From contig CAYJJJ010000004.1 of the NCBI GenBank assembly GCA_964370465.1, positions 12,643 to 36,642 on the forward strand: 24,000 nt of DNA. The letters run 5' to 3'. Shown in pieces: positions 1 to 17,236 of this stretch (positions within the stretch are counted from its first letter, which is position 1; each line of letters starts with the position of its first letter). The DNA is from an uncultured Oscillospiraceae bacterium (GTDB lineage: Bacteria; Bacillota; Clostridia; Oscillospirales; Ruminococcaceae). The notes beneath the pieces are model-generated. The model saw only the letters and a program-made list of their open reading frames with translations, was not told the origin of the DNA and did not search any database. Position numbers and translations under genes: made by a program.

Positions 1-973
1 CACCAGTGAAGCTTATATTTTGCTTTGTAAAAGCTTCCATGATAATCTGCGCATTCTCGAGATAGTATTTGATGTTTTCAGATATCTGCGCACGTCCTAT
101 CTCTGAGAAAATAGCCTGCGCTCCACGCTGTATTATATACGGCACACCGTTGAATTTCGTTGTCTGGCGACGAAGCCAGAAGCTGTTTAAACTATCTCCA
201 TCGGACTCGATAGCTTTTGGAACAACTGTATATCCGCATCGGGTGCCTGTGAAACCGGCCGTCTTTGAAAGTGAACAAAATTCAATTGCGCATTTGTTTG
301 CACCGCATATTTCATAAATTGTTGTTGGAAGGCTTTTATCGGTGATAAAAGCTTCATATGCACTGTCAAAGAGGATTATAGCTTTTTCTTTTAGCGCGTA
401 GTCAACCCATACTTTAAGTTGCTCTTTGCTGTATACAGCACCTGTTGGGTTGTTTGGTGAGCATAGATAGATAATATCTGCGTGAATATCGGGGTTTGGC
501 ATCGGAAGGAAGTTGTTTTCGCTATTTCCCTCTATCAAAATAATCTCTCTGCCAGCCATAATATTTGTATCGATATAAACAGGGTAGACAGGATTTGGAA
601 TCATAACAACATTATCTTTATCAAAGATATCGAGGATATTTCCAATATCACTTTTTGCGCCGTCGCTTATGAATATCTCATCAATTCCAACATTTACGCC
701 TTTTTCACTGTAATACCGCGAGATTGCTTCACGAAGGAAGCCGTATCCTTGTTCTTCGCCGTACCCTTTAAAGGTGCTGCTATCGCTCATCTCTAAAACT
801 GCCTTTTGCATAGCTTCAATTGATGCTTTCGGCAACGGAAGGGTAACATCACCTATTCCAAGTCTTATTATATCACTTTTTGGGTTGTTTTCCTTAAAAT
901 CTGCAACTTTCTTTGCAATATTTGAAAAAAGATAGCTTTGTTCTAAGTTTTTATAGTTTTTATTAAGTTTCAT
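1..973 (-). CDS. dapL: LL-diaminopimelate aminotransferase (DapL-type class I PLP aminotransferase). N-terminal ~324 codons only; the gene continues past the left edge.
   Basis: Absent from the ORF track because it is open at the window edge. Manual minus-strand translation from the ATG at 973-971 gives [48 protein letters not shown]...[19 protein letters not shown]...[17 protein letters not shown]...[17 protein letters not shown]...[10 protein letters not shown]...[16 protein letters not shown]. These blocks match DapL hallmarks as I remember them, including the SxSK PLP-lysine motif. The ATG overlaps the pyrG stop (ATGA at 970-973). The neighbouring dapF fits the lysine/DAP pathway. Confidence 0.8.
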
Positions 974-2577
974 ATATCACCTCTTTTTCCCAGTGCCGCC
1001 TGCACAAGTCCTAAGAAAAGCGGATGGGCTTTATTTGGTCTGCTCTTAAACTCAGGGTGGAACTGCACTGCAACAAAATATCTGCAACTGCTGTTTTCAA
1101 CCGCCTCAACAAGAGTTTCATCGGGGGAGTAACCGCTGATTTTGAGTCCTCTCATCTCCATTATCTCACGATAATAGTTGTTAAACTCAAATCGGTGACG
1201 ATGCCTCTCATCAATCAGCTTGCTATTGTATAGCGTTTGTAGTTTTGTGCTATAAACTGTCTTGCAAGGGTATGAGCCAAGACGCATTGTGCCCCCCTTA
1301 TCAGTTACATTTATCTGACTATCCATAATATGGACAACAGGGTGGGGCGTATTTTCATCAAACTCTTTTGAGTTTGCACTCTCGAGTTTGCAAACATTTC
1401 TTGCAAATTCTATTACAGCAATCTGCATACCAAGACAAATTCCAAGGAAAGGTATATCGTTCTCTCTTGCGTACTTGCAGGCGTTTATTTTCCCTTCGAT
1501 GCCTCTGTCGCCAAATCCACCTGGAATTATCATTCCATCGATATTTGCAAAGAGTTTCGGCGCGCTTTCTTCGGTCACAAGTTCGCTGTCTATCCATTCG
1601 ATTGCTATCTCAGAGCCTTCGTTGTAACCAGCATGTTGAAGCGCTTCTGAAACTGAAAGATATGCATCATGAAGCTGGACATATTTGCCGACAATAGCGA
1701 TAGTAATCTTTTTATCCCTATCATCGATTTTTTTAAGCATTAGTTTCCATTCAGTTAAATCGCAAGGTTTAGCTTCGAGTTTAAGTTCTCGACAAACTAT
1801 CTCATCAAGACCTCTTTCATGAAGCATCAAAGGCGCTTGATAGAGGTGTGGCATCGTTGCATTTTCTATAACGCAATCCCGCTTGACATTACAAAACATC
1901 GATAGCTTTTCAAGGGTGTCTTCATCTATCGCCTCATCAGCCCTTGTTATAATTATATTGGGGGAGATACCTATTGAACGTAGCTCTTTAACTGAGTGTT
2001 GAGTTGGTTTCGATTTATGCTCGCCGCTCCATTTTAGGTAGGGGACAAATGTAACATGTATGAACAGACAATTATCACTGCCAACTTCGAGTGAGAGCTG
2101 TCTTATCGCTTCTAAAAATGGTTGGCACTCAATATCTCCCGAAGTGCCTCCGATTTCGGTTATCACTACATCTGCGCCGCTATATTTTGCATTGTCATAG
2201 ATAAACTGCTTGATTTCATTTGTTATGTGTGGGATTACCTGAACTGTTTTTCCAAGGTATCCGCCCTGTCGCTCTCTTGTTATAACATTGTGGTAAACTC
2301 TGCCAGAGGTTAGATTTGAGTGTTTTGTCAGATTTTCATCAATAAACCGCTCGTAGTGACCGAGGTCGAGGTCTGTTTCAGCGCCATCATCGGTAACATA
2401 AACTTCACCATGTTGGTATGGACTCATGGTACCAGGGTCAACGTTCATATACGGATCAAGTTTTTGCGCCGCTATTTTAAAGCCACGTTGTTTTAAAAGT
2501 CTGCCAAGGCTTGCCGCTGTTATGCCCTTGCCAAGCCCTGAAACAACTCCACCTGTTACAAAAATAAATTTTGTCAT
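970..2577 (-). CDS. pyrG: CTP synthase (glutamine-hydrolysing)
   Basis: 535-aa ORF. The N-terminus [23 protein letters not shown] is the classic CTP synthase P-loop-like motif. The C-terminal class I glutamine amidotransferase domain contains GICLGMQ and HRHRFEFN. The ATG overlaps the dapF stop (ATGA at 2574-2577). Confidence 0.97.
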
Positions 2578-3443
2578 ATAATAACCTCTCCATCGAAAAC
2601 TTTTTCACATTCACCGGTCATAAATACTGCTTTATCTGTGCATTTAATCGTGAGCTCACCACCTAAAAGTGAAACGGTGATATCGGTATCTTTTTCGCAA
2701 AACCCGAGTTTCACAGCCGCGCATACAGCTGCACAAGCACCAGTACCGCATGCCATAGTCTCGCCGCTACCTCTCTCCCAAACTCTCATTAGTAACTTTG
2801 TTTTAGAAACAATTTGAATAAACTCTACGTTTGTTTTTTCGGGAAATATATCGGCATTCTCAATAGGCTTTCCTAAACCCTCGACATCGATAGTTGAAAA
2901 ATCCTTTATTTCCTCAAAACCAAAAATCACAGCATGTGGGTTTCCCATAGAAACACAGGTGATTTTGTGAGTAGTGCCATCTATAGTAACCTCTCTGTCT
3001 AATATTTCATCGCCATCTAATTTTACCGGTATTAATGCAGGGTCGAAAATTGCGGCCCCCATATCGACACATACAGACTTAACAATATCGTTTTCTATAA
3101 AAAGCTTAAGAGTTTTTATACCACTTAGCGTTTCGATTTTTAGGATATCTTTTTTAGCTATATCATTTTCATATAGATACTTTGCAACGCAACGTATAGC
3201 GTTTCCGCACATCTTACCCTCGCTACCATCGATATTAAACATTCGCATTTTAGCGTCTGCTATATCAGATGGAGCAATAAGCACTATCCCATCGCCACCT
3301 ATACCGCTATTTCTATCTGATAGCTTAATTGCAATATCCTGTGGGGTTGGGAAGGGGAGAGATTCGGTTGCAAAGTTATTAAAGAGGTTGAAATATATAT
3401 AATCGTTTTTACATCCGTGCATCTTTGTGAATTTTAATTTCAT
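2574..3443 (-). CDS. dapF: Diaminopimelate epimerase
   Basis: The ORF track gives 2574-3455. The protein has DapF motifs: [36 protein letters not shown] (first catalytic Cys), GNPH, NVEF and [19 protein letters not shown] (second catalytic Cys). I prefer the ATG at 3443 ([10 protein letters not shown]) because AGGTGA lies about 9 nt upstream. GTG 3455 and ATG 3452 are alternative starts that overlap the upstream stop. Confidence 0.92.
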
Positions 3444-3451
3444 TGCAATCA

Positions 3452-4033
3452 TCACCTATCTTCATAAATTTTTAGTATTCCCTCAGCAACTGCCCGACGT
3501 GTAATTCTGCCGTCCATTGCTTGTTTTTCAATATGTCTGTGAGCGTCTTCTTCGCTCATACTCAAATATGAAATAAGCAGATGTTTCGCCCTATCGATAA
3601 TTTTTATATCTTCAATTGTAGAAATAAGTTTTGCGTTTTCTTTTTCCATAATTGATAGCCTATTAAATGAAGCTTTTGCGAGTTTTAGTGAAAACCAAAA
3701 TATATTTCTGTTAAGTGGTTTTGAAACAGTTATGACACCAAAATCCTCGACTTTGCGTGATACTTCGTCGTAGTAATCATTATTTACAAGTAAAATAACT
3801 TGGCTTTTGTGTTTTGATGTGATGTCTATAGAGAGCCGCTCACCAGTTTCATCTTTTAGTGGAAAGTTAATTATTACTATATCAAATTCCTGTTCATTTA
3901 GTTTTCGCCGAGCCTCTGAAACAGAGGTAGCAATTACTATTCGTTCCAAAGAAAATTCGCTCAGTTGTTGTTTTATAAAATCAGTTGCTTTTGATACACT
4001 TGATACAATTAGTCCCGTTTCGATATATGCCAC
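3452..4033 (-). CDS. ANTAR-domain RNA-binding antiterminator with an atypical (pseudo-)receiver N-terminal domain
   Basis: 193 aa, GTG start preceded by GGAGGAGG. The C-terminal segment IIDRAKHLLISYLSMSEEDAHRHIEKQAMDGRITRRAVAEGIL fits the ANTAR helical pattern. The N-terminal ~120 aa has a receiver-like beta-alpha layout and keeps the conserved K-P (VSKPL). It has SS where the acidic pair is expected and N56 in FDIVIIN where the phospho-acceptor Asp is expected. Confidence 0.85.
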   Translation of the reverse strand: MAYIETGLIVSSVSKATDFIKQQLSEFSLERIVIATSVSEARRKLNEQEFDIVIINFPLKDETGERLSIDITSKHKSQVILLVNNDYYDEVSRKVEDFGVITVSKPLNRNIFWFSLKLAKASFNRLSIMEKENAKLISTIEDIKIIDRAKHLLISYLSMSEEDAHRHIEKQAMDGRITRRAVAEGILKIYEDR

Positions 4034-4056
4034 CTCCTCCGTAAATTATTTTAAAT

Positions 4057-5349
4057 TTAAAACTGACGGAAATAGTTGAGTTCTGAAAATTCGCAGTTAT
4101 CAAGATTGCTTTCAAAACGAACAATCTCATTGCGCTTCTTATCGAGATAATCAGCAAGGAAACTCTCACCCACTACCGATGAAACAAATTCTGATTTTGA
4201 AGCTACTTCGAGTGCTGTCTTCAAGTCGCTTGGAAGCTTTTTGAAATTATTCTCAATTGGTGAATCATAGTTTGTCTTTTCATCTAAGGTGAGGTTATTT
4301 TCAATTCCGTAAAGCCCTGATGCAATTATAAGTGCATACGCTATATATGGATTTACTGTAGGGTCCGGGGAGCGAAGTGTTACCCGTGTGCGTTTGTTGT
4401 CGATTTTTGGCGTTGTTAAAAGCTGAAGTGTGTTATTCTCAGACCAACAGATGTCTGACGGTGCAAACATCTCGCCAAAGCGATCATATGAGTTTATATT
4501 TGGATTTAAAAAAGCTGTAATCTCTTCAATTTTTGACATAATGCCAGCTATAAAGCTCTCTGCAACTGCCGAGTTTTCTGAGAATATATTTTCTCCGCCT
4601 TTATTAAGTGAAAGATTAATATGCATACCACTTCCGTCTTTATCGGGTAATGGTTTGGGCATAAATGAAGCAAAAAGGCCGTTTCTCGCTGCAATAGCTT
4701 TTACTACCGACTTGAAAGTCAAGAAATTGTCAGCAGACTGCAAAGCATCTCTGTATTTGAAATCTATTTCATTTTGACCAGGACCTTTTTCGTGATATGA
4801 TGTTTCGGGGTGAAGTCCCATCTCCTCAAGTGTTAAGCAGATTTCTCTTCTGATATTTTCACCCTTATCGAGTGGTGCGATATCGAGATATCCGCCGTTA
4901 TCAAGCGTTTCATAAGTGGGCTCGCCGTTTTCATCTGTTTTGAAAAGATAAAACTCACAGTCAGCGCCAATTTTGCATCTGTAACCCATATCTGCCGCCT
5001 GTGCAAGCACCTTTTCTAAAATATATCTGCTATCTCTATCATATCGCTTTCCATCAGGTGTTTTAATATCACAGTAAAAGCGAATAACTCTGCCGGGATC
5101 TGGTCGCCAAGGTAGAACAGTCAGAGTTGTGGCGATAGGGAATAGTCTTAGTTCGCATTGCTTTGTTCCTTCGAATCCCTCTATTGCAAATCCATCGAAT
5201 GAAACCCCTTTTTCAAATGCATCTTCAAGCTCTTCACTTAGTATAGAGATGTTTTTATGAAAGCCAAATGGGCAACAAAAGCTAAGCCTTATAAATTTAA
5301 CATCGTTATCTGCTGCGAAGTTTAGTATCTCTTTATTAGTAGTGTTCAT
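4057..5349 (-). CDS. glnA: Glutamine synthetase, type I family (short, 430 aa)
   Basis: GS beta-grasp N-domain (VKFIRLSFCCPFG...) and catalytic domain with EFYLF, HHEKGPGQNEIDF-like (YHEKGPGQNEIDF), GSGMHINLSL and NPYIAYALIIASGLYGI. A consensus promoter and a leader lie upstream. Confidence 0.9.
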   Translation of the reverse strand: MNTTNKEILNFAADNDVKFIRLSFCCPFGFHKNISILSEELEDAFEKGVSFDGFAIEGFEGTKQCELRLFPIATTLTVLPWRPDPGRVIRFYCDIKTPDGKRYDRDSRYILEKVLAQAADMGYRCKIGADCEFYLFKTDENGEPTYETLDNGGYLDIAPLDKGENIRREICLTLEEMGLHPETSYHEKGPGQNEIDFKYRDALQSADNFLTFKSVVKAIAARNGLFASFMPKPLPDKDGSGMHINLSLNKGGENIFSENSAVAESFIAGIMSKIEEITAFLNPNINSYDRFGEMFAPSDICWSENNTLQLLTTPKIDNKRTRVTLRSPDPTVNPYIAYALIIASGLYGIENNLTLDEKTNYDSPIENNFKKLPSDLKTALEVASKSEFVSSVVGESFLADYLDKKRNEIVRFESNLDNCEFSELNYFRQF

Positions 5350-5423
5350 ATCAATTGACCTTTCTTTATAATGTAGATATAAATATAGTATTATTATTTT
5401 TTGTCTTTTTCAATATAAAAAAT

Positions 5424-5492
5424 AAAAAAGCGGTCATCAATCAGAGGTTAGGTGTCTGCTGACACGTTATCTGATGATGAACGCCGTTGTTC
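5424..5492 (-). promoter_or_regulatory. glnA 5' leader element: hexaloop hairpin overlapping an intrinsic terminator (attenuator)
   Basis: Minus-strand RNA. Hairpin GAAC (5492-5489), loop AACGGC (5488-5483), GUUC (5482-5479). Long hairpin: 5' arm 5484-5471 pairs with 3' arm 5444-5430 (13 bp, one mismatch, one bulge). Apical hairpin GUGUC-AGCA-GACAC. U6 follows directly at 5429-5424. The small hairpin and the terminator base share nucleotides, so they are mutually exclusive. Confidence 0.6.
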
Positions 5493-5501
5493 TCGGTATT
5501 T

Positions 5502-5530
5502 ATTATAAACCTCTGAAATGTAAATGTCAA
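5502..5530 (-). promoter_or_regulatory. Sigma-A type promoter for the glnA operon
   Basis: On the minus strand: TTGACA (5530-5525), 17-nt spacer, TATAAT (5507-5502). This is a perfect consensus. The predicted TSS near 5495 lies 2-3 nt before the leader hairpin. Confidence 0.7.
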
Positions 5531-5552
5531 CAAAAAAATATTAAAAAAAATG

Positions 5553-5581
5553 TTGACAATGAAATGAGGCTGTGATATACT
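5553..5581 (+). promoter_or_regulatory. Sigma-A type promoter for asnA-glnN
   Basis: TTGACA (5553-5558), 17-nt spacer, TATACT (5576-5581). The predicted TSS near 5588 lies about 5 nt before the leader hairpin. Confidence 0.7.
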
Positions 5582-5593
5582 GCAAAGCATAGA

Positions 5594-5638
5594 CAGCAAA
5601 GGCGCTGTGAGCTTTATTAGCTTGCAGTGTCTTTTTTT
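5594..5638 (+). promoter_or_regulatory. asnA 5' leader element: hexaloop hairpin overlapping an intrinsic terminator (attenuator)
   Basis: Hairpin CAGC (5594-5597), loop AAAGGC (5598-5603), GCUG (5604-5607). Terminator: 5' arm 5601-5613 pairs with 3' arm 5619-5631 (13 bp including 4 G-U pairs), loop UUAUU, followed directly by U7 (5632-5638). The hexaloop 3' half and the 3' stem form the base of the terminator. Confidence 0.6.
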
Positions 5639-5685
5639 GTTTTTAACAAGCAAGTTGTTTTCAAAATTGAGAGGAGAAAAAAGTT

Positions 5686-6693
5686 ATGAGTATTACAAAA
5701 ACAGTTGAAGGTTATAAATCGGCACTGTCGGTTTATGAAACGCAAAAAGCTATTGGCATGTTGAAGAGGAGCTTTGAAGATAATCTTTCGACAAAACTCA
5801 ATTTAGCAAGAGTATCGGCACCACTTTTTGTTTTACCGACAACTGGTCTTAACGATGATCTCAACGGAGTGGAACGTGCAGTTGCATTTGATGTTTTGGA
5901 AACAGGGGAGGAACTGCAGATAGTTCACTCACTTGCAAAATGGAAAAGAATGGCACTTCACAAATATGACTTTAAAGTCGGGGAAGGACTCTACACCGAC
6001 ATGAACGCCATAAGACGTGATGAGGAGATGGATAATCTCCATTCTATATATGTTGATCAGTGGGACTGGGAGAAGGTTATTAGCCGCGAGATTAGAACAG
6101 TAGAGGAGCTCAAAGCAACTGTAGTAAAGATAGTAGATGCTATCTGTGATACACAAGATGTTGTAAAAGCAGCTCATCCAGAACTCAAAACAACACTTTC
6201 AAGAGATGTTAAGTTTGTAACCACTGGGGAGCTTTTGGATATCTATCCAACGCTTACACCTAAAGAGAGGGAAGATGCATACCTCAAAGAGCATAAAACA
6301 GCATTCATTATGCAGATTGGCGATAAGCTAAAAGACGGCATTAAGCACGACGGAAGAGCCCCGGACTACGACGACTGGGCGTTAAACGGAGATATTGTTT
6401 TCTGGAGCGATGTGCTAGGATGTGCATTTGAAATTTCGTCTATGGGAATTCGTGTTGATGAAGTGTCGCTTGCGCAGCAGCTGAAAAAAGCTGGATGCGA
6501 AGAGCGCCGCGATTTACCATTCCACAAAGCTCTGCTCGCAGGGGAGCTACCACTCACAATGGGTGGCGGTATCGGTCAATCGAGATGTTGTATGTTGTTG
6601 CTTGAAAAAGCGCACATAGGTGAAGTTCAAGTTTCATACTGGGATAAAGCGACTGTTTCGAGTTGTGAGTCCAGCGGTATAACACTACTATAA
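5686..6693 (+). CDS. asnA: Aspartate--ammonia ligase (asparagine synthetase A)
   Basis: 335 aa. Blocks match AsnA as I remember it: [64 protein letters not shown] lies upstream. Confidence 0.93.
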
Positions 6694-6715
6694 TATAATG
6701 CAAGGAGTTAGTATT

Positions 6716-8803
6716 ATGAAAGATGTTCCAAATTTATTCGGAAGTTTAGTATTCAACGATAAGGTGATGAGGGCAAGACTTCCAAAAGATGTATATAAGA
6801 CGCTCAAAAGAACTATGGCAATGGGCAAGCATTTAGATGCTGACATTGCAAACGTAGTTGCTAATGCTATGAAAAACTGGGCGCTTGAAAAAGGTGCCAC
6901 ACACTTTACCCACTGGTTCCAGCCGATGACCGGTATAACAGCTGAAAAGCACGATAGCTTTATATCTCCAACTGATGATGGTAGTATTATAATGGAGCTT
7001 ACAGGTAAAGAGCTTATCAAAGGTGAGCCAGACGCTTCGAGTTTTCCATCAGGTGGTCTTCGTGTAACATTTGAGGCGAGAGGTTATACAGTTTGGGATA
7101 CAACATCTTATGCATTTATAAAGGATGAAACACTCTGCATACCAACTGCATTCTGCTCATATAGTGGTGAGGCGCTCGATAAAAAGACTCCTCTATTGCG
7201 CTCGATGGAAGCTATCGACAAGCAGGCTATGCGAGTGCTCCGTCTGTTTGGCAATGACAAGGCAAAAAGAGTTAATACAACAGTAGGACCAGAGCAAGAG
7301 TATTTCCTTGTTGATAAAGAGATGTATAAAAAGCGCCCCGACCTTATAAGTTGTGGCAGAACACTTTTCGGAGCAAGACCTGCTAAAGGTCAGGAGATGG
7401 ATGACCACTATTTTGGTAGTTTAAAGTCGAGGGTTTCAGCTTATATGAAAGAGCTCGATGAGGAGCTCTGGAAGCTTGGTATTTTTGCAAAGACAAAGCA
7501 CAATGAAGTGGCTCCTGCTCAGCACGAATTTGCACCTATCTTTACAACAACAAATATAGCGACTGACCACAATCAGCTAACAATGGAGCTTATGAAGAGC
7601 ATTGCAAATAAGCATGATCTTGTTTGTTTACTCCATGAAAAACCTTTTGCAGGTGTTAATGGAAGCGGTAAACACAACAACTGGTCCATTTCAACCGACA
7701 CAGGAACAAACCTGTTAGAGCCAGGAGAAACTCCACACGAAAATGCACAGTTTTTGCTATTCCTATCAGCTGTTGTGAAAGCTGTTGATATCTATCAAGA
7801 TATGCTTCGTATTTCGGTAGCTTCTGCTGGGAATGATCATCGCCTTGGTGCAAATGAAGCACCTCCGGCAATAGTTTCAATCTTCCTTGGTGATGAGCTC
7901 ACCGATATACTCGACGCTCTAAAAGGCGGTAATGACTACGAGGATAAAGGTAAAGTTGAAATGCAGATAGGTGCGAGCGTACTACCGCACTTTAGAAGAG
8001 ATACAACAGATAGAAACCGTACATCTCCTTTTGCATTTACAGGGAATAAGTTTGAGTTTAGAATGCTCGGCTCGGCTTTCTCGATATCTGGACCAAATAT
8101 TGTACTAAATGCAGCTGTTGCAGATGTGTTAGAAGGATTTGCAAACACTCTTGAAGGGGCGAAAGACTTTAACACAGCACTAAAAGAGCTAATTGCAAAA
8201 ACTATTAATGAACACGATAGAATAATATTTAACGGCAACAACTACTCTGATGAGTGGGTTGAAGAAGCAAAACGCAGAGGTCTATCAAATCTTATGACAA
8301 CTGTAGATGCGCTTCCAAGATTTATTGATAAAAAGAATATAGATATGTTTGTCCGCCAGGGAGTATTTACCGAAACAGAAATAATTTCGAGATACGAAAT
8401 TCTTCTTGAAAACTACTGTAAAACTGTCCATATAGAAGCGCTTACAATGGTTGACTTAGTAAATAAATATATCACACATTCTTCTTATGCATATCAAAAT
8501 GATCTTATGAAGCTCTATACAAGCAAAGAGAGTGCTGGATTTGATGTAACAGCAGAAAAAGCTCTTATAAATAAAATCTCACGCATAACTGCTTCATTAG
8601 TAGACAGCACAGACAGACTTTCAAGCAATCTTCTCAAAGTTAAATCAATTGAAGATTCTCTAGAGCATGCAAAGTTCTATCGCAGTAAGGTAGCACACTG
8701 TATGAATGAGATAAGACTTTCGGTTGACGAACTTGAGACAGTGATAGCTAAAAAACACTGGTATTTCCCATACTACTCAGAGCTGTTATACAGTGTTGAT
8801 TAA
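6716..8803 (+). CDS. glnN: Glutamine synthetase type III
   Basis: The ORF track starts at 6698. I prefer the ATG at 6716 ([15 protein letters not shown]...) because AAGGAG lies at about 6702-6707. The ~695 aa length and the blocks [23 protein letters not shown] and [16 protein letters not shown] are characteristic of GSIII. Confidence 0.92.
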
Positions 8804-8928
8804 TTTTTGTTATAATTAGTAAAAATATTCCGTTTTCGGTTGCCGCTGTAGTGGTGAGAGCAAGTAATAAAAGCGAAGCGGAGTTTAATTAAAAAAATAA
8901 TGAAATAATGTTCTTTTCATTTATTTTT

Positions 8929-8987
8929 ACACAATGGCGTGTATGGTTTTGAATTTATTCAAAGTCCATACGCGCCAACATTTTTTT
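8929..8987 (+). promoter_or_regulatory. amtB-glnK 5' leader element: hexaloop hairpin overlapping a terminator-like hairpin just upstream of the RBS
   Basis: Hairpin ACAC (8929-8932), loop AAUGGC (8933-8938), GUGU (8939-8942). Large hairpin: 5' arm 8936-8946 pairs with 3' arm 8966-8976 (11 bp, one G-U pair), with an inner stem UUUGAA/UUCAAA. It is followed by AACA and then U7 (8981-8987). AGGAGG sits at 8988-8993 and the ATG at 9002. The 4-nt gap before the U-run makes this a weaker terminator than the other two. Confidence 0.5.
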
Positions 8988-9001
8988 AGGAGGTATTTAA
9001 T

Positions 9002-10678
9002 ATGTTTTCAGCAGTAGACACAATTTGGACGTTACTCGGGGCGGCGCTCGTCTTCTTTATGCAGGCGGGGTTTGCAATGGTAGAGACAGGATTTACAAGG
9101 GCGAAGAATGCCGGTAACATCATCATGAAAAACCTTATGGACTTCTCACTTGGTAGCGTTATGTTCTGGTTTATAGGTTTTGGGCTTATGTTTGGAGGCG
9201 ATGGCGCTTTTATTGGCGGTCTTGATTTTTTCATACAAGGTGATTATGGCTCGTCTATTCCATCGGCGGCATTTATTATATTCCAAACTGTATTCTGTGC
9301 CACAGCGGCAACTATTGTTTCAGGTGCGATGGCTGAAAGAACAAAATTCTCGACCTACTGTATCTACAGTATTATAATAAGTGCGGTTGTTTACCCAATT
9401 TCAGGTCACTGGATATGGGGAGGCGGCTGGCTATCACAGATGGGCTTCCACGATTTTGCAGGATCAACAGCAGTTCATATGGTAGGTGGTGTTGCGGCAC
9501 TTGTAGGAGCTAAGATAATTGGCCCTCGTATTGGAAAATTCAGCAAAAGCGGAAAGGTGCGAGCAATACCTGGTCACAGTTTAACACTTGGTGCTCTTGG
9601 CGTATTTATTCTTTGGTTCTGCTGGTTTGGATTCAACGGTGGTTCAACTGTTTCAATGACAGATGGCGCTATAGAGTCAGCGGCTAACATATTTATGACA
9701 ACAAACATAGCGGCGGCGGCAGCTGCAGCAGCTGTTATGATAATAACATGGATAAGATACAAAAAACCAGACGTATCGATGACACTCAATGGCGCGCTCG
9801 CAGGACTTGTTGGAATAACTGCTGGTTGTGATGTGGTTTCACCTACAGGTGCATTCTTTATAGGTTTAATCTCTGCATTTGTAGTAGTATTTGGAATTGA
9901 GTTTGTTGAGAAGATACTAAAAATTGATGACCCAGTTGGTGCTGTTGGCGTACATGGAATGTGCGGTGCTGTTGGTACAATACTCGTCGGTGTGTTTGCG
10001 CTCGAAGGCGGTCTTGCTTACGGCGGTGGATTTGACTATCTGATAGTTCAGCTTATAGGTGTTGGAGCGGTTATTGCTTGGGTTGCTGTTACCATGACAA
10101 TTGTATTTACAGTTCTTAAAAAGACAATCGGTATAAGAGTAACAAGGGCGGAAGAGCAAGCTGGACTCGATATAGAAGAGCATGGACTTGTAAGCAGTTA
10201 TGCAGACTTTGTGCCTGTAACTCACGGTGCAAACTTTGTTGCAAAACCAGAAGTAGAAGAGGCGCTCGAAGTGGCGGCTGTAGATGTTGCTATACCAGTA
10301 GTTGATAACTCAAAAGCAGGTGCTAAAATGACTAAAGTAGTTATCATAACAAAACGCAACAGGTTTGAACTTCTAAAATCAGCGCTTGACAGCATAGAGA
10401 TAACAGGTATGACTGTAACAGAAGTTCTCGGTTGTGGAATACAAAAAGGTGTTACAGAGCTATACCGTGGTACACCGCTTGAAACAACACTTCTACCAAA
10501 AATCAAAGTTGAGGTTGTTGTCTGCAAAGTGCCAGTACAAACTGTTGTAGATACAGTTAAAAAAGCGTTATACACAGGAAACATCGGCGATGGTAAAATA
10601 TTTATCTATGATGTTGAGAACGTTATAAAAGTTAGAACTGGCGAGCAGGGTTATGATGCTCTTCAGGATGTTGAATAA
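9002..10678 (+). CDS. amtB: Ammonium transporter (Amt family) fused in-frame to a C-terminal PII (GlnK/GlnB) nitrogen-signalling domain
   Basis: One uninterrupted 558-aa ORF. Residues 1 to ~400 are a multi-TM Amt domain (FFMQAGFAMVETG, DFAGSTAVHMVGG, FGFNGGS, DPVGAVGVHGMCG). An acidic linker of about 45 aa follows. The last ~115 aa, MTKVVIITKRNRFELLKSALDSIEITGMTVTEVLGCGIQKGVTELYRGT...GDGKIFIYDVENVIKVRTGEQG, are an unmistakable PII fold sequence with the T-loop Tyr. Confidence 0.9.
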   Translation: MFSAVDTIWTLLGAALVFFMQAGFAMVETGFTRAKNAGNIIMKNLMDFSLGSVMFWFIGFGLMFGGDGAFIGGLDFFIQGDYGSSIPSAAFIIFQTVFCATAATIVSGAMAERTKFSTYCIYSIIISAVVYPISGHWIWGGGWLSQMGFHDFAGSTAVHMVGGVAALVGAKIIGPRIGKFSKSGKVRAIPGHSLTLGALGVFILWFCWFGFNGGSTVSMTDGAIESAANIFMTTNIAAAAAAAAVMIITWIRYKKPDVSMTLNGALAGLVGITAGCDVVSPTGAFFIGLISAFVVVFGIEFVEKILKIDDPVGAVGVHGMCGAVGTILVGVFALEGGLAYGGGFDYLIVQLIGVGAVIAWVAVTMTIVFTVLKKTIGIRVTRAEEQAGLDIEEHGLVSSYADFVPVTHGANFVAKPEVEEALEVAAVDVAIPVVDNSKAGAKMTKVVIITKRNRFELLKSALDSIEITGMTVTEVLGCGIQKGVTELYRGTPLETTLLPKIKVEVVVCKVPVQTVVDTVKKALYTGNIGDGKIFIYDVENVIKVRTGEQGYDALQDVE

Positions 10679-10701: not shown

Positions 10702-10753
10702 AAAAAAGACCTCCCATCTGTCGGATTAAATCTAACAGATGGGAGGTCGTTTT
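10702..10753. terminator. Bidirectional intrinsic terminator
   Basis: 14-bp perfect stem GACCTCCCATCTGT (10708-10721) / ACAGATGGGAGGTC (10735-10748). It is flanked by A6 on the left, which reads as a U-run for minus-strand transcripts. GTTTTA lies on the right. It sits after amtB-glnK and after the orphan repeat copy and XRE gene. Confidence 0.8.
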
Positions 10754-10792
10754 AATGTGAGTATAAAATAATTGAGGTTTTAAAATTCAAAC

Positions 10793-10855
10793 CTAAACCA
10801 TTCGCACTTTGCGCTCTTTTAGCTTGTTTGCTCGGTAGTTAGCACTGCCGAGGTG
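10793..10855 (-). repeat. 63-bp direct repeat, copy A: orphan duplicate of the last 20 codons plus stop of the glycyl-radical enzyme gene at 13358-14860
   Basis: It is base-for-base identical to 13358-13420 by manual alignment (CTAAACCATTCGCACTTTGCGCTCTTTTAGCTTGTTTGCTCGGTAGTTAGCACTGCCGAGGTG). On the minus strand it encodes HLGSANYRANKLKERKVRMV* with no upstream ORF. It lies 4 nt downstream of the XRE gene stop. Confidence 0.9.
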
Positions 10856-11183: not shown

Positions 11184-11241
11184 GGTTTTGGGCAAAAGGT
11201 TATATAAGTAAAGGGTTTCAAATAATATTGTGGGAGGATTT

Positions 11242-13266
11242 ATGAATTGTAAAAAATGTAACACACTGATTCCATTGCATGGTGCATATTGTCCTAATTG
11301 TAAAGAGCCGGTTACGGATTTTGTGATTTTACAGAACGGTATACAAAATAGCTATGCAGATGAACAGAATTTTGATTATTATCAAAATGATACTTCTCAG
11401 CCAGAAAGTGAAACAGAAATTATTATACAACCACAGCAGGTAACAAATGATAACTCAAATAAATTTTTAGACAAACTCGAGCGAAAGATAAAAAAAATAA
11501 TTGATATTCTCATAAAATTCTTTAAAAGCTTAACTCCTATAAAAATATGCATACTGATAACATTTGCGATTGTAATAATTATAGGTTTTTCTTTCATTTT
11601 TAATAGTATTATAAGTTTTATTGATGAAATGAATGGTATTATAAGCATTGACAGTGAGTATAACGATTACATAGACTTAGAATATTCAGCAGCTTATAGA
11701 GATATAGAAAAAGAGGGATTTACTAATATAGAATTATTAGAATTAAATGACTTAGAAAGCAGTATTGATGACAAGCTAGTAACTGAGATAACTATTGATG
11801 GTGAATCAGAGTTTTACAGTGGCGATAAGTTTAGTTTAGATTCAAAAGTAGTTATAACATATCATACAGTTTTACAACTAACTTCACCACTAGATGCATC
11901 TCAAACAATAGGGAAAAACTTTGAGGAAATAAAAAATGAATTTGAATTAGCTGGTTTTAGCGATGTGCGAACAGTTGGACTTGAAGATTTGAAATCGGAT
12001 GACATAAATCTTTATAATGTTGAAGAGGTGACAATCGACAGTTCGCAAAATTTCAATTCAGAAGAAATGTTTCCAAAAGATTCTGTAATAAAAATTTACT
12101 ACCATTCACCAATGCAAATAGAGATTCCGGTCAGTTCTGAAGATATGGAATTTGAAAACTATGAATTATATTTGGATATGTTTGAGAGGGCAGGGTTTAC
12201 AAATATATCAACCGAAAAAATTGAAGATCTCATAATAGGTTTTCTTGTATCAGACGGAGAAATTGAAAAAGTAACTGTTGATGGTAATGATAATTTTCAG
12301 AAAGGTGAAAGCTATCCTCCTGATGTTGAAATAGTATTTTATTACCATACTTTCCCTGGCGACGATGAAGAAGAGAATACTGATGAAAACACTGAAGAAG
12401 CAGAATTGCTTGAAGAATATTTTCCGCAAGAGATGGCGAAACGAGCAATTATAGTTGCAATGACTAATCACAACGCTATAGATGTTTTCTCGGAAGACGG
12501 AAACACAAGAGACCCATCTAAGTTTCACAGCTATTCAGATAAATCAGATTATTATATAACCATATATGAAGATGGTGTTTGGGAAGCAGTCAATGATTAT
12601 ACTTGGTATGTCGAAGATTTGGTTCTTGAACTTCACGGCTATACATTCTTAAAGGTTTCACTTGAAATCGCTTATGATGAGATTTTTTATTATATTGAGA
12701 ATGGAACTCTCACAATAGCTAATCTTGAAAATATAAATTCGTCAGACCCTAATAAAATTTCAGTTGAAGAGCTGATAAACAATGCAAACAATCCTCAACT
12801 GACGGTTTCTCCGGATTTAATTGTTGAAGACAGAATAGAGGAATTTGATGATATTGAAGATGAATCTATTGATGAAGTTCCCGAAAGCATTCCTGATGAT
12901 TCAACATCTTCCGGAAGTGAATCAGGATTTTCGCACTATGAATGGAACAGCTGGGTTAATTCACAGTTTAGTATTTGGGATGGTTCGCACAATGATTTTG
13001 AGGAGTTAATCAAGGATAATTTAAATGATGAACGCTCATATAGTCACATAGAAACAACTTTTATAGCGATAAGTGATGAAAATGTAAAAAACGATGTTTT
13101 ATCAATTTTACAGGGAGCTGGCGTCAATACTACATTAGAAATATATGATGTATTTATTATGTGTGAATTTTCAGCAAAAAATGCTTTTGATGCTACAATT
13201 AAAAATACAGCACTTGGTGTTGTGAGCTATGAAAACAATACAATTACACTAATAACAGTTTTATAA
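11242..13266 (+). CDS. Zinc-ribbon, single-pass membrane protein with three tandem ~65-aa extracytoplasmic repeats, an acidic linker and two uncharacterised C-terminal domains (674 aa)
   Basis: The ORF track starts at GTG 11230. I prefer the ATG at 11242, preceded by GGGAGGA. N-terminal CKKCN...CPNCKEP is a zinc ribbon. The TM helix is ICILITFAIVIIIGFSFIFNSIISFI. Three repeats lie at 11680-11868, 11911-12108 and 12151-12351. They share the pattern (E/D)xxGFxx(I/V)...(V/I)xx(I/V)T(I/V)DG/S..F.....(F/Y)......V.I.YH. Acidic runs follow (DDEEENTDENTEEAE; EEFDDIEDESIDE). No homolog was recognised for the C-terminal part. Confidence 0.75.
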   Translation: MNCKKCNTLIPLHGAYCPNCKEPVTDFVILQNGIQNSYADEQNFDYYQNDTSQPESETEIIIQPQQVTNDNSNKFLDKLERKIKKIIDILIKFFKSLTPIKICILITFAIVIIIGFSFIFNSIISFIDEMNGIISIDSEYNDYIDLEYSAAYRDIEKEGFTNIELLELNDLESSIDDKLVTEITIDGESEFYSGDKFSLDSKVVITYHTVLQLTSPLDASQTIGKNFEEIKNEFELAGFSDVRTVGLEDLKSDDINLYNVEEVTIDSSQNFNSEEMFPKDSVIKIYYHSPMQIEIPVSSEDMEFENYELYLDMFERAGFTNISTEKIEDLIIGFLVSDGEIEKVTVDGNDNFQKGESYPPDVEIVFYYHTFPGDDEEENTDENTEEAELLEEYFPQEMAKRAIIVAMTNHNAIDVFSEDGNTRDPSKFHSYSDKSDYYITIYEDGVWEAVNDYTWYVEDLVLELHGYTFLKVSLEIAYDEIFYYIENGTLTIANLENINSSDPNKISVEELINNANNPQLTVSPDLIVEDRIEEFDDIEDESIDEVPESIPDDSTSSGSESGFSHYEWNSWVNSQFSIWDGSHNDFEELIKDNLNDERSYSHIETTFIAISDENVKNDVLSILQGAGVNTTLEIYDVFIMCEFSAKNAFDATIKNTALGVVSYENNTITLITVL

Positions 13267-13297: not shown

Positions 13298-13339
13298 AAA
13301 ACACCCATCGTTTTGAATTTTCAAAACGATGGGTGTTTT
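13298..13339. terminator. Bidirectional intrinsic terminator
   Basis: Near-perfect long hairpin ACACCCATCGTTTTGAA / TTCAAAACGATGGGTGT (13301-13336). A-run on the left and T-run on the right. It lies between the convergent 674-aa gene and the glycyl-radical enzyme gene. Confidence 0.8.
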
Positions 13340-13357
13340 AAACCTACAAATATAATG

Positions 13358-13420
13358 CTAAACCATTCGCACTTTGCGCTCTTTTAGCTTGTTTGCTCGG
13401 TAGTTAGCACTGCCGAGGTG
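13358..13420 (-). repeat. 63-bp direct repeat, copy B: the functional 3' end (codons 481-500 plus stop) of the glycyl-radical enzyme gene
   Basis: Identical to 10793-10855. It starts exactly at the stop codon and ends exactly on a codon boundary (21 codons). Confidence 0.9.
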
Positions 13421-14860
13421 GATGGTGTTTTGAAGCACCGTTTCACCGCTCTCATGCTTTGCCATCTCACTGCGTTTAACAAGGTATCCAGTTATACGAA
13501 CAAGATCGGAGTCCGCTGCATAGAAGCTCATATAGTGAACACCCTCGCTAAATGCACCTTTGACAACGTCAGCAAGCGCCGCTGGGTTTTGTTCTATATT
13601 TGTAGCTATTGGGAATATATCGCCAACGCCCGCTGGGAAATATTTATGATATCTCGCAGAGTGGCGGAGATGATCGATAAAGTTATCTGGCTCATCACCG
13701 ACAGGGATGCGCACACCAGATGTAACTCCGATATCAGAATCAAGCCCTACCTGTGCATGAAGCACAAACTTGTTGTCAGTGAGAGGGGAGTATACTGCAT
13801 CAAAACTATCGACTGTCGCTTTAATCTTATCCATTATACGAACTGCCAAAATATTTGCCTCTTCATCTCTGCCATACTGCAAATCTTTATCTTTGAGCAG
13901 GCCATTAACAGCCTCCGCAAGACCAGTTACACCAAACATTGTAACAAACCTATCTTTATCCATAAGTCCTTCTTTTATCAGAAAATTTGACTCGAAGAAA
14001 CCGCTTTTTTCGACAAAGAATGAAACCCTCTCGTTTAAATAATCTGCCATTAGTTGCAAAACTTCAGGTAGCAGTTCTTCAACAAAATGCTCGACGCTAT
14101 TTGCATCTTCTATAAGTTTTGTGAGGGTTATTCTCGATAGGGTGTATGAGCCACCTGAAATCGGTAGGATATTATAACAGCTTGAAATGCCATACCCACC
14201 GTTATAGTAGTTAATATTTGCGGTGTCGTTGCAGATAGCGGGGTTTGAGCATTTTAATGAGGTTTTAACTGCAAGTGATAAAAAGTCATCAGTTGTCTTC
14301 TCGGGATTGTATTTAAGAGTTAAGTTTGGAACGGCATTCGAAAGCTCGCCGATAACTTTAATTATAAGCTCACCCGCCCTTGAAGGGGTAGCGGAGATAT
14401 TCGCATGGCAAAATGAGTCGGTAATAGTTCTGTCGAGGTAGGTGAAGAATAGTTTTAGTTTTCTCTCGACCTCCTCGTCGCTTATATCCTCGATAAAAGG
14501 CGCTATCATCGTATCTAAATCTCCGAGGTAAACAGGGAAGTTTGTAACAGATGGAACATGCCTATAAAGGGTCATGAGCGAGAAAATAAGTTCATCAAAA
14601 TCAGCTGGGGGAGTGAGTCCTAAAAATGCACTGCCGTTTTCTATGAATTTCTGATAATCTGGCATTGTGTATCTTGGGCAATATGGCGCTGAAAATCCCG
14701 ATAGGTCGTTTATAGCACCTGTTTCAAAAAAGTGCATCGCTCTCTCAGGGACATTTAAGACCTTCACCGAGCATGCTGCCGCATTCGCAAGTCCCATAAC
14801 CTTTTGTTCGTGGGTGAGCGTCTGCGAAGTTAATATGTTATATGCAAAATTGCTGTCCAT
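13358..14860 (-). CDS. yjjI: Putative glycyl-radical enzyme, YjjI-like family (DUF3029-type, ~500 aa), paralog 1
   Basis: 500 aa. The C-terminal glycyl-radical-type motif DLVRITGYLVKR has its Gly codon at 13487-13489. The gene lies immediately downstream of a radical-SAM activase. The ~500 aa size is much shorter than PFL-class enzymes and matches the YjjI family as I remember it. The protein aligns along its whole length with the ORF at 15730-17235. Confidence 0.65.
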   Translation of the reverse strand: MDSNFAYNILTSQTLTHEQKVMGLANAAACSVKVLNVPERAMHFFETGAINDLSGFSAPYCPRYTMPDYQKFIENGSAFLGLTPPADFDELIFSLMTLYRHVPSVTNFPVYLGDLDTMIAPFIEDISDEEVERKLKLFFTYLDRTITDSFCHANISATPSRAGELIIKVIGELSNAVPNLTLKYNPEKTTDDFLSLAVKTSLKCSNPAICNDTANINYYNGGYGISSCYNILPISGGSYTLSRITLTKLIEDANSVEHFVEELLPEVLQLMADYLNERVSFFVEKSGFFESNFLIKEGLMDKDRFVTMFGVTGLAEAVNGLLKDKDLQYGRDEEANILAVRIMDKIKATVDSFDAVYSPLTDNKFVLHAQVGLDSDIGVTSGVRIPVGDEPDNFIDHLRHSARYHKYFPAGVGDIFPIATNIEQNPAALADVVKGAFSEGVHYMSFYAADSDLVRITGYLVKRSEMAKHESGETVLQNTIHLGSANYRANKLKERKVRMV

Positions 14861-14878
14861 CGTATCTTCCTTTCAATA

Positions 14879-15733
14879 TTAAACGGTTAAAATATCTTTA
14901 AATCCTACCGACTGCGCAAGGGCTTTAAGCCTTTGCAACTCATCGTCACTTGTTGCAGGTAAACTACTATATTCGCCACGCACACCAATAGGGCGGAAGG
15001 CGATTAACTTTAGTTTTGTTGAAAGTCCTTTTTCACCGATAAGCTTTGCGGACTGGGTTATAATCCTATCTGCATCAACTTTTCCCGGTATTACAACTAT
15101 TCGAAGTTCGGTGAGTTTTCCCTCATCTGCGAAAAATTTCAGGTTTTTCCGAACTATATCATCGTTTCTATCAAGTGTTACATCATAATATACATCGCTA
15201 TCCCAAGACTTTACATCGAGCATAACGCCGTCGGTAACTGCCATAAGCTCATCTTCTTCTGTGAGGTCGATAGTGCCATTAGTGTCAATAAGGCAAGTTA
15301 GATTTTTTTGGCGCACGAGGCGGAAAAGCTCTGTTAGATATCCGATATTCAGGCAACATTCACCGCCCGAAACTGATATGCCTCGAATAAATGCACCGCT
15401 ATCCTCAATGATTTTAAGCGTGTCTGCCGGTGTCTGTCGCTCGACTTTAGGGGATGCGAAGTGCGGACATACTCGAATACATTCATCGCACTTCACGCAT
15501 TTATTCTTATCCCACAAAACTGCATCACCGCTTTGGGTGAGCGCCTTTGTAGGACATAATAAAACGCACTCTCCACACCCGATACAAAAGTTTTGAGTTT
15601 CGGGGTTGTGGCAGTATTTGCATTTTATATTGCAGTTTTGAAGAAATATCGATGTGCGAGCACCGGGACCATCGACTGTGCTTATAGGGATAATGTTATT
15701 TACATATGCAAAAGAGCTTTGCCCGTTTATCAT
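14879..15733 (-). CDS. yjjW: Glycyl-radical enzyme activating protein (radical SAM, YjjW-like)
   Basis: 284 aa. The radical-SAM cluster motif is CNIKCKYCHNPET (CX3CX2C), preceded by VDGPGARTSIFLQNC. Two ferredoxin-like motifs follow: CIGCGECVLLCP and CVKCDECIRVCP. The ATG overlaps the upstream gene stop (ATGA at 15730-15733). Confidence 0.85.
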   Translation of the reverse strand: MINGQSSFAYVNNIIPISTVDGPGARTSIFLQNCNIKCKYCHNPETQNFCIGCGECVLLCPTKALTQSGDAVLWDKNKCVKCDECIRVCPHFASPKVERQTPADTLKIIEDSGAFIRGISVSGGECCLNIGYLTELFRLVRQKNLTCLIDTNGTIDLTEEDELMAVTDGVMLDVKSWDSDVYYDVTLDRNDDIVRKNLKFFADEGKLTELRIVVIPGKVDADRIITQSAKLIGEKGLSTKLKLIAFRPIGVRGEYSSLPATSDDELQRLKALAQSVGFKDILTV

Positions 15734-17235: not shown

Positions 17236-17236
17236 A

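Follow-up and report, generated by a model that had tools for sequence, protein, structure and literature searches.

The stretch of DNA considered here – a 24-kb window, meaning the whole of what was analysed, from an uncultured Oscillospiraceae bacterium – has a G+C content of 39%, and its nearest relatives are metagenome-assembled genomes of uncultured Oscillospiraceae. Two sets of genes diverge from a single intergenic region within it: glnA, which encodes type I glutamine synthetase (GS), lies on the minus strand, and asnA lies on the plus strand, upstream of amt-PII, which encodes an ammonium transporter with a fused P-II domain. Our subject is a small RNA hairpin in the leaders of these three genes, in which a short stem carries a hexaloop of the form AANGGC, and in which part of the loop and the 3′ stem strand are shared with an intrinsic terminator. 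The hairpins are listed below with their promoters and terminators; R1 is a covariance model whose seed sequences, taken from related copies too, include the three hairpins, and P1 and P2 are the two tandem hexaloop hairpins of published targets of ANTAR proteins.

5502-5530, minus strand: glnA promoter, TTGACA-17-TATAAT, 12/12 match to consensus
5479-5492, minus strand: glnA-leader hairpin, GAAC-AACGGC-GUUC, P1-like, with a C-G closing pair
5417-5484, minus strand: glnA-leader intrinsic terminator; stem 5484-5430, U6 at 5429-5424, second U6 at 5422-5417
5553-5581, plus strand: asnA promoter, TTGACA-17-TGnTATACT, 11/12 match, with an extended -10 TG
5593-5608, plus strand: asnA-leader hairpin, A-CAGC-AAAGGC-GCUG-U (4-bp core 5594-5607), P2-like (AGC...GCU)
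5598-5640, plus strand: asnA-leader intrinsic terminator; 16-bp stem 5598-5634, then a U-run
8929-8942, plus strand: amt-PII-leader hairpin, ACAC-AAUGGC-GUGU, the third copy; 24.5 bits with R1
8935-8988, plus strand: amt-PII-leader terminator; stem 8935-8977, AACA spacer, U7 at 8982-8988

An earlier note on this DNA had described two divergent consensus promoters, each followed within 2-6 nt of the predicted transcription start site (TSS) by a small hairpin, and this arrangement is confirmed by the promoter scores and by the presence of both hairpins. The -10 element of the glnA promoter stops 9 nt short of its hairpin, which places the predicted TSS at about 5494-5496; that of the asnA promoter stops 12 nt short, placing the predicted TSS at about 5587-5589, at the A of a conserved CAUAGA. 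The intervening ~100 nt that separate the glnA and asnA hairpins are filled by the two back-to-back promoters. The third leader, to which the note had merely alluded, is that of amt-PII. With R1 the glnA hairpin scores 23.8 bits and the asnA hairpin, which extends to 5 bp, 31.2 bits.

All three terminators are markedly more stable than their shuffled counterparts, with minimum free energies (MFE) of -23.6 kcal/mol for glnA (z = -4.5), -25.4 kcal/mol for asnA (z = -4.4) and -26.4 kcal/mol for amt-PII (z = -8.0). The 5′ strand of the glnA terminator starts in the hexaloop, at G5 and C6, and takes in the 3′ stem strand of the hairpin, while the asnA terminator stem takes in the entire hexaloop together with that strand. 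The overlap that the note had claimed is thus upheld by folding, and the 13-bp stem it gave for the terminators is not: the stems have some 15-16 pairs. Hairpin and terminator are mutually exclusive, as had also been claimed. Folding with the small hairpin enforced costs 7.9 (glnA), 14.1 (asnA) and 15.7 (amt-PII) kcal/mol; the base of the stem beside the U-run is lost, and what is left is an upper stem that ends 6-12 nt before the U-run and is not a terminator. On their own the three hairpins are worth just -2.9 to -4.8 kcal/mol (-3.1 kcal/mol for that of glnA). Being so weak relative to the terminator they need stabilising, and termination is therefore the predicted default state.

The note had likened the hexaloop, with A at position 1 and G at position 4, to the RNA targets of ANTAR proteins, and the likeness proved close: loop and C-G closing pair are those of published NasR and EutV substrates. 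The comparison was made with the published seed alignment (Ramesh et al. 2012, Fig. S1; PMC3369931), which includes the following hairpins.

nasF P1: CGCGCC-AAUGGC-GGCGCG
nasF P2: GGAU-AAAGGC-GUCC
eutP P1: AAACAC-AAUGGC-GUGUUU
eutS P1: GCAC-AACGGC-GUGC
eut P2 hairpins: AGC-AAAGNN-GCU

The motif C-AANGGC-G equals nasF P1 and eutP/eutS/eutG P1; the amt-PII hairpin is identical to the 14-nt core of Enterococcus faecalis eutP P1; and, set against this seed, the glnA hairpin is of P1 type and the asnA hairpin of P2 type. Closing pairs matter for EutV (PMC3369931), with which the C-G pair, invariant in the copies described below, is in keeping. Loop, closing pair and identity to seed sequences together make the element an ANTAR target as a type of hairpin. 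A comparison with the Rfam ANTAR-target model, which the note had proposed, gave a different outcome: Rfam 15, ANTAR-target families included, yields 0 matches at the gathering score in the window, and a permissive scan of 5350-5700 (E <= 10) returns matches at chance level only. Attenuation by a riboswitch or leader peptide was considered and rejected, the leader being too short and no leader open reading frame (ORF) being evident.

A first concern is whether the likeness might be incidental, the leaders carrying constitutive terminators or 5′ stem-loops that stabilise the mRNA. Small hexaloop hairpins of the A..G.. form are common by themselves – there are ~85 in the window – and the octamer CAANGGCG is over-represented there, at 10 sites against 1.9 expected, mostly in coding sequence. 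Yet stems, and scores with the model, are confined to the three leader copies among the CAANGGCG sites, and chance fails to account for a loop, a closing pair, an overlapping terminator, gene function and ~80 conserved copies occurring together. We accordingly regard an incidental likeness as highly unlikely. R1 finds exactly three sites in the 24 kb, at 24-31 bits, the next best scoring 12.6 bits (E = 0.39); these three sites are among the seed sequences of the model, and the real test therefore comes from comparative data.

For this comparison we assembled 80 loci from species-representative genomes, fetched by way of homologues of the ANTAR protein encoded in the window. Sites in the structural scan had to have an A..G.. 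hexaloop on a 4-bp stem, together with an MFE terminator beginning in the loop and finishing at a U-run; 69 copies pass this RNAfold filter, in the window and in 44 of the 80 related loci, and they come from Clostridia and a few other lineages. The covariance-model scan of relatives that the note had recommended returned 82 matches at E <= 0.05 in the 858 kb of loci (80 at E <= 0.01), ~17 of the 82 having been missed by the structural filter. The commonest loop is AAAGGC (41 copies), followed by AAUGGC and AAAGAC (7 each), AAAGGU (6) and AACGGC (4), with other loops at one or two copies each. The stems are far more varied, comprising GAAC/GUUC, CAGC/GCUG, ACAC/GUGU, AAAC/GUUU, CAAC/GUUG, UAGC/GCUA and GUAC/GUGC types, and the C-G pair that closes the loop is invariant in 68 of 68 distinct copies.

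The observation that stems differ and stay complementary around a constant AA-N-GGC loop, made in the note for the glnA and asnA hairpins, thus extends to compensatory changes across related copies. The covariation score is 0.681 as against 0.200 in shuffles (0 of 500 shuffles reach 0.681), although, a 4-bp stem having been demanded at selection, the covariation of those four pairs is partly built in. For this reason two unbiased checks were used. Firstly, a fifth pair, for which no selection was made, forms in 59 of the 68 distinct copies (U-A in 30, A-U in 22), and its identity follows the class of the stem, GAAC stems having U-A there and CAGC stems A-U. Secondly, at sites anchored only on the core CAANGRYG, the three outer pairs are complete at 117 sites against 43 expected from shuffling of partners (882 kb, loci plus window).

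Covariation also bears on the nature of the molecule that is recognised. A perfect inverted repeat lying over a start site is in a frequent position for a repressor, and the element is found at nitrogen genes; a dimeric repressor such as a GlnR/TnrA-like protein might then use it as an operator in the DNA, at +1 to +20, the terminators being unregulated or unrelated. The half-sites, however, change compensatorily (GAAC, CAGC, ACAC, AAAC, CAAC) around an asymmetric 6-nt spacer, AANGGC, that is constant, and it is on this ground that we reject the operator, which we find barely credible. The element, moreover, always stands in the orientation of transcription, always overlaps a terminator and equals validated RNA targets. 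The GlnR/TnrA box is TGTNAN7TNACA, to which it bears no likeness.

The energetic relationship seen in the window holds among the relatives, the median free energy over the 69 copies being -3.2 kcal/mol for the hairpin and -23.7 kcal/mol for the terminator. The terminator MFE structure pairs loop positions 4, 5 and 6 in 52, 68 and 97% of copies, respectively, and the 3′ stem strand in 93-100%. The layout of back-to-back leaders recurs in 17 loci: one of the two leaders is of CAGC type, and its opposite number, ~120 nt away, is of GAAC type in 16 of the 17. The lag to the competing terminator strand has a median of 23 nt in the CAGC class and 51 nt in the GAAC class.

The leaders of two related loci look different. 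Upstream of glnA at ~4390-4620 of L014 and ~4420-4650 of L015 (handles with an L denote related loci) the hexaloop hairpin is absent and there is a tandem element with recurring GGAAACAUAACC...CACAGCAA-like blocks, which may represent a different leader RNA.

A critical issue is whether each leader holds one hairpin or two. In 58 of the 69 copies a sigma-70 promoter scoring at least 9/12 has its -10 element ending 6-13 nt before the stem, with a mode of 9-12 nt, and from this conserved spacing transcripts are predicted to start 2-6 nt before the hairpin, which would then begin at about +3 to +6. A second A..G.. hexaloop hairpin with a stem of at least 3 bp was sought in the 45 nt upstream and 40 nt downstream of all 69 copies. 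Upstream there is one at 13 of the 69 copies against 7.7 expected, none of them conserved and several overlapping promoter hexamers; downstream there is one at 4 of the 69 against 5.6 expected. The terminator tops, GUGUC-AGCA-GACAC in glnA, vary across copies and none is a hexaloop; the amt-PII hairpin is likewise without a partner.

A dual-hairpin covariance model, R2, built from six eut seed sequences only, fits one half of itself to these leaders. In the window it aligns its P1 half alone to the leader at 8929 (14.5 bits, E = 0.06), its P1 half and a spurious tetraloop to that at 5492 (13.5 bits) and its P2 half alone to 5590-5606 (9.1 bits), E-values for the window leaders spanning 0.06-1.3. 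No R2 match in the 858 kb of loci has E < 0.01, and all the top matches are anchored on a single hairpin. Two further R2 matches in the window, at 10821-10848 and 13386-13413, were discarded as they fall in an unrelated 73-nt direct repeat. The two tandem hexaloops by which Ramesh et al. (2012) define a target – P1 and P2 with a 5-12 nt linker – are therefore not what is found here; those other features of that definition that can be read from sequence are present, namely an A1/G4 hexaloop on a stem of 4-5 bp, the closing pair, the exclusion of a terminator and an ANTAR gene nearby. The note's count of one hairpin per leader agrees with all of these results.

It could nonetheless be argued that these are canonical dual-hairpin targets whose transcripts start farther upstream, or whose second hairpin is degenerate, mis-predicted promoters having created the look of a single hairpin. 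Every characterised ANTAR system follows the dual-hairpin rule, the amt-PII copy has ~105 nt of possible leader upstream of it, and a few relatives have a sporadic second A..G.. hairpin inside the terminator (GGU-AAGGAG-GCU, 10 nt downstream, in L004, for example). Against this stand the near-consensus TTGACA-17-TATAAT promoters at a fixed distance in those 58 copies, from distant lineages, and the 100-nt core of the glnA/asnA intergenic region, which back-to-back promoters take up; nor are second hairpins enriched over shuffles or conserved, or R2 able to align more than one half. We consider a hidden second hairpin very unlikely.

If the element is a target of an ANTAR protein then a candidate is close at hand, for one is encoded in the glnA operon itself. 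The genes concerned are these.

4057-5349, minus strand: glnA, type I glutamine synthetase
3452-4033, minus strand: gene for an ANTAR-domain protein of 193 aa (Pfam PF03861)
2574-3455, minus strand: dapF
970-2577, minus strand: pyrG
970-5349, minus strand: operon glnA-ANTAR-dapF-pyrG, predicted to be regulated
5686-6693, plus strand: asnA, divergent from glnA
6698-8803, plus strand: type III glutamine synthetase (GS-III)
5686-8803, plus strand: operon asnA-GSIII, predicted to be regulated
9002-10678, plus strand: amt-PII, ammonium transporter fused to a P-II domain, predicted to be regulated

The ANTAR gene follows glnA after 23 nt, the subsequent genes overlap by 4 nt, and the four thus look like a single operon; no terminator was called in the interval between glnA and the ANTAR gene. 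The protein is an ANTAR protein, as the note had reported, with a C-terminal ANTAR domain (PF03861, E = 7.5e-14), and is related to Rv1626, EutV and NasR; homologues in Clostridium species share 53-56% identity. Its N-terminal domain is receiver-like, with a REC score of 25.3 that lies below the cut-off of 30.2. Asn56 is aligned with the phospho-acceptor Asp of Rv1626 (1s8n), the Asp being located by its DLVIMD motif, and is invariant among 35 homologues; the N-terminal pair of acidic residues that would make up an acidic pocket is missing; and no kinase gene flanks the ANTAR gene. Of the marks of a response regulator of the EutV/GnfR type, the Asp and the acidic pocket are thus lacking and a cognate kinase is not encoded alongside, and from these features together with the low REC score we take the protein to be a pseudo-receiver like AmiR and not part of a two-component system. 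The nitrogen signal presumably reaches it through a protein partner or a ligand; given gene linkage one may speculate that GS, its near-constant gene neighbour, or P-II is that partner.

The hairpin might instead be bound by another RNA-binding regulator, or by an ANTAR protein encoded elsewhere. The visible sequence amounts to 24 kb of a genome, several ANTAR proteins are possible per genome, and the receiver domain of the 3452-4033 product is degenerate. But it was by way of homologues of this very protein that the motif was found in relatives, where it lies no more than 6 kb from the gene in 44 of 80 loci; the ANTAR gene adjoins glnA in 59 of 74 loci; and the loop is the ANTAR consensus. 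We therefore hold a different regulator to be decidedly unlikely. The same adjacency, and the uninterrupted 23 nt, make plausible the autoregulation that the note had suggested: being behind its own glnA attenuator, the regulator would form a positive feedback loop, one that needs some basal read-through.

The genes behind the element tell a consistent story. Across the loci the first ORF downstream of a copy may be glnA, asnA, type III GS, amt-PII or glutamate dehydrogenase (gdhA), but also a gltB-like class-II amidotransferase (GATase_2), asnB, carA, purA, purB or purC, or a gene for an unannotated 369-aa protein. Their products draw in or consume nitrogen as ammonium, glutamine or aspartate. 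For many relatives, glnA comes later in its operon, behind a purA-like or glmS-like gene, the glmS-like label being judged only from a reading of the upstream sequence; absence of the motif is consequently uninformative at many of the loci that are without it. The position of glnA behind such genes widens the putative regulon to more enzymes that consume glutamine or aspartate. Loci at which glnA comes directly after a purA-like or glmS-like gene are L003, L008, L026, L038, L046, L052, L054, L072 and L080.

The three leaders are, we believe, probably attenuators through which the NitR-type ANTAR protein of the glnA operon controls a regulon for nitrogen assimilation. According to this model a strong sigma-70 promoter would transcribe each leader, which would first make a weak hairpin of 4-5 bp that begins at about +3 to +6, its AANGGC hexaloop closed by C-G. 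Unaided, this hairpin (about -3 kcal/mol) would lose to the terminator (about -24 kcal/mol) and transcription would stop at the U-run. When nitrogen is limiting, the ANTAR protein would bind the hairpin, newly emerged from the polymerase, at its hexaloop and closing pair, and would hold it against invasion by the 3′ strand of the terminator; with the pairs beside the U-run lost, the polymerase would read through into glnA-ANTAR-dapF-pyrG, asnA-GSIII and amt-PII. A single hairpin would then serve both as recruitment site and as antiterminator. It could double in this way because it is the first RNA out, 20-90 nt ahead of the competing terminator strand; that 5′-terminal placement makes the hairpin its own recruitment site is our proposal, and the weakest step of the model.

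Beyond the covariation built in by the choice of copies, several points weigh against attenuation controlled by this protein. Everything presented comes from computation, centred on a window of 24 kb, and all TSS positions derive from promoter consensus only. The relatives were picked by presence of the ANTAR gene, so the set holds no ANTAR-less genomes with which co-occurrence could be compared. In the window the amt-PII leader is the least typical. No consensus promoter adjoins its hairpin, the nearest candidate, with an extended -10, being at 8787-8816; the leader may be reached from there, or by read-through from asnA-GSIII. Its terminator has 4 nt between stem and U7 and is to that extent less canonical. 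Among the relatives the GAAC-class ‘terminator’ is in some cases followed by just UUU, as at L050 663-760, L054 2680-2760 and L033 158-260, and there the efficiency of termination, or even the mechanism, may differ. There is also the evidence from EutV, which in vivo needs both hairpins, the length of the linker also mattering (PMC3369931; PMC8934654): the published model predicts poor antitermination by a lone hairpin.

In the leaders of L050, L054 and L033, where GCCUUU is followed by residues other than U, the AAA of the loop pairs with those three U residues.

Structural work on EutV favours the view that a single hexaloop makes up a whole binding site: the dimer touches only one of them at a time, and either P1 or P2, when isolated, is bound no less well than the two together (PMC8934654). 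This work and the genetics of eutP argue that P1 is needed in vivo as a recruitment site (PMC8934654; PMC3369931). The 2022 EutV study (Walshe et al.) asked whether natural, functional sites with a single hexaloop exist, and considered them likely only in the absence of a race with the polymerase (PMC8934654). Published matches in Clostridia, among them Alkaliphilus Amet_3386 and Caldicellulosiruptor glnA, are listed in Table S2 of Ramesh et al. (2012). A literature search that covered few subscription journals found no described single-hairpin ANTAR target in Clostridia. As to whether the leaders exemplify a large natural class of ANTAR attenuators, spread through Clostridia and a few others and defined by a single 5′-terminal hexaloop hairpin and a non-phosphorylatable pseudo-receiver of NitR type, we see the question as evenly poised.

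Comparison with known systems helps to place the element. With EutV and the eut leaders of E. faecalis and Listeria it shares the A1/G4 hexaloop, the closing C-G and the overlap with the 5′ base of a terminator, and its putative regulator, like EutV, has a receiver-like domain, a coiled coil and an ANTAR domain. Unlike the eut leaders, those described here have one hairpin, at +3 to +6 by prediction, with no recruitment hairpin or linker, and a P1-type sequence that itself overlaps the terminator; the regulator has Asn for the phospho-acceptor Asp and no kinase gene in its vicinity, and the targets belong to nitrogen assimilation, not to ethanolamine utilisation. NasR/nasF of Klebsiella oxytoca has the same loops (C-AAUGGC-G and GGAU-AAAGGC-GUCC), and both it and AmiR/amiE of Pseudomonas aeruginosa control nitrogen-related genes. 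AmiR, moreover, is a non-phosphorylated pseudo-receiver, as we suppose the regulator here to be. In contrast, published descriptions give the nasF and amiE leaders two hairpins each; nitrate is sensed by the NIT domain of NasR, and AmiC holds AmiR.

GnfR of Geobacter sulfurreducens offers a further parallel in the RNA. It bound in vitro a fragment of nifH-leader RNA containing CAGGCAANGGCGCC (Ueki and Lovley 2010; PMC2995071), and each of the nifH, glnK and amtB leaders has this one conserved element (GGC-AANGGC-GCC) in overlap with its terminator. GnfR differs in being a phosphorylated response regulator with a cognate kinase, GnfK, and its promoters in being sigma-54 dependent, with longer leaders; the site is presented as a conserved sequence, and the number of hairpins is not analysed in PMC2995071.

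A parallel in gene order is clostridial glnA-nitR, in which, as here, glnA is directly followed by an ANTAR gene of the same operon. NitR (formerly GlnR) of Clostridium saccharobutylicum NCP262 is described, in papers that cite the original work, as an ANTAR antiterminator that induces glutamine synthetase and glutamate synthase (GS/GOGAT) under nitrogen limitation (PMC6316151; PMC4676874). Those citing papers, in the descriptions available, give no RNA target, no single hairpin and no regulon of such breadth. The element probably belongs, functionally, with ANTAR antitermination and to the clostridial NitR system, and so to a kind that is already known. Since NitR antitermination of Clostridium glnA is already in the literature, only the architecture of a single hairpin would be new as a mechanism; what appears to be new besides the promoter-proximal position of that hairpin is its breadth, across dozens of genomes, and the regulon thereby defined. 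The older work on NitR may already show a hairpin in the glnA leader.

Should the single-hairpin model be correct, the recruitment hairpin P1 of the EutV model would be dispensable whenever the antiterminator hairpin is first to leave the polymerase, and the three leaders, with their ~80 relatives, are candidate single-hairpin antiterminators that act co-transcriptionally: a direct, natural test of the recruitment-hairpin model. The regulon would run from nitrogen assimilation into purine synthesis (glnA, glnN, asnA/B, amt-glnK, gdhA, gltB-like, carA and purA/B/C) and, as predicted, would span Oscillospiraceae of gut and rumen, Lachnospiraceae, Christensenella and Clostridium species. Cultured organisms with the same leaders include Clostridium disporicum, C. 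cuniculi, Christensenella sp. MSJ-20, Roseburia lenta and Pygmaiobacter massiliensis. The clostridial NitR system, known for long yet ill defined, would thereby gain a concrete RNA target and a predicted regulon. For searches elsewhere the pattern is a promoter, then xAxC-AANGGC-GxUx, then a terminator; covariance models of dual hairpins would under-score such sites. The degenerate receiver domain, for its part, is a reason to seek the nitrogen signal.

Several minor features of the window merit mention. Inside glnA, on the plus strand and thus antisense, there is a promoter-like site at 4774-4801 (TTGACC-16-TGxTATGAT, 10/12), promoter-like matches in the region being at chance level; it recalls the glnA antisense RNA that has reportedly been found in C. 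saccharobutylicum. The octamer CAANGGCG, whose expected count comes from shuffles, occurs for example at 1828, 9096, 9787, 10143, 14375, 15542 and 20735. The seven sites outside the leaders have no flanking stems, and the three that were checked (9096, 9787 and 10143) fall in the amt-PII gene; the excess is probably an effect of codons or composition.

The 73-nt direct repeat has two copies, 95% identical, at 10783-10855 and 13348-13420. Immediately 5′ of each copy is a near-perfect inverted repeat (10703-10753 and 13298-13339) that resembles a bidirectional terminator. Between the two copies is an orphan ORF of 678 aa (11230-13266) that matches nothing in Pfam, and the 3′ end of a YjjI-like gene runs into the second copy; the region might be an insertion with a duplicated junction. 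Beyond it, on the minus strand at 13358-17929, are genes for paralogous YjjI-like glycyl-radical enzymes (13358-14860 and 15730-17256), with a radical-SAM/4Fe-4S activase between them (14879-15733) and a Crp-like regulator at 17237-17929.

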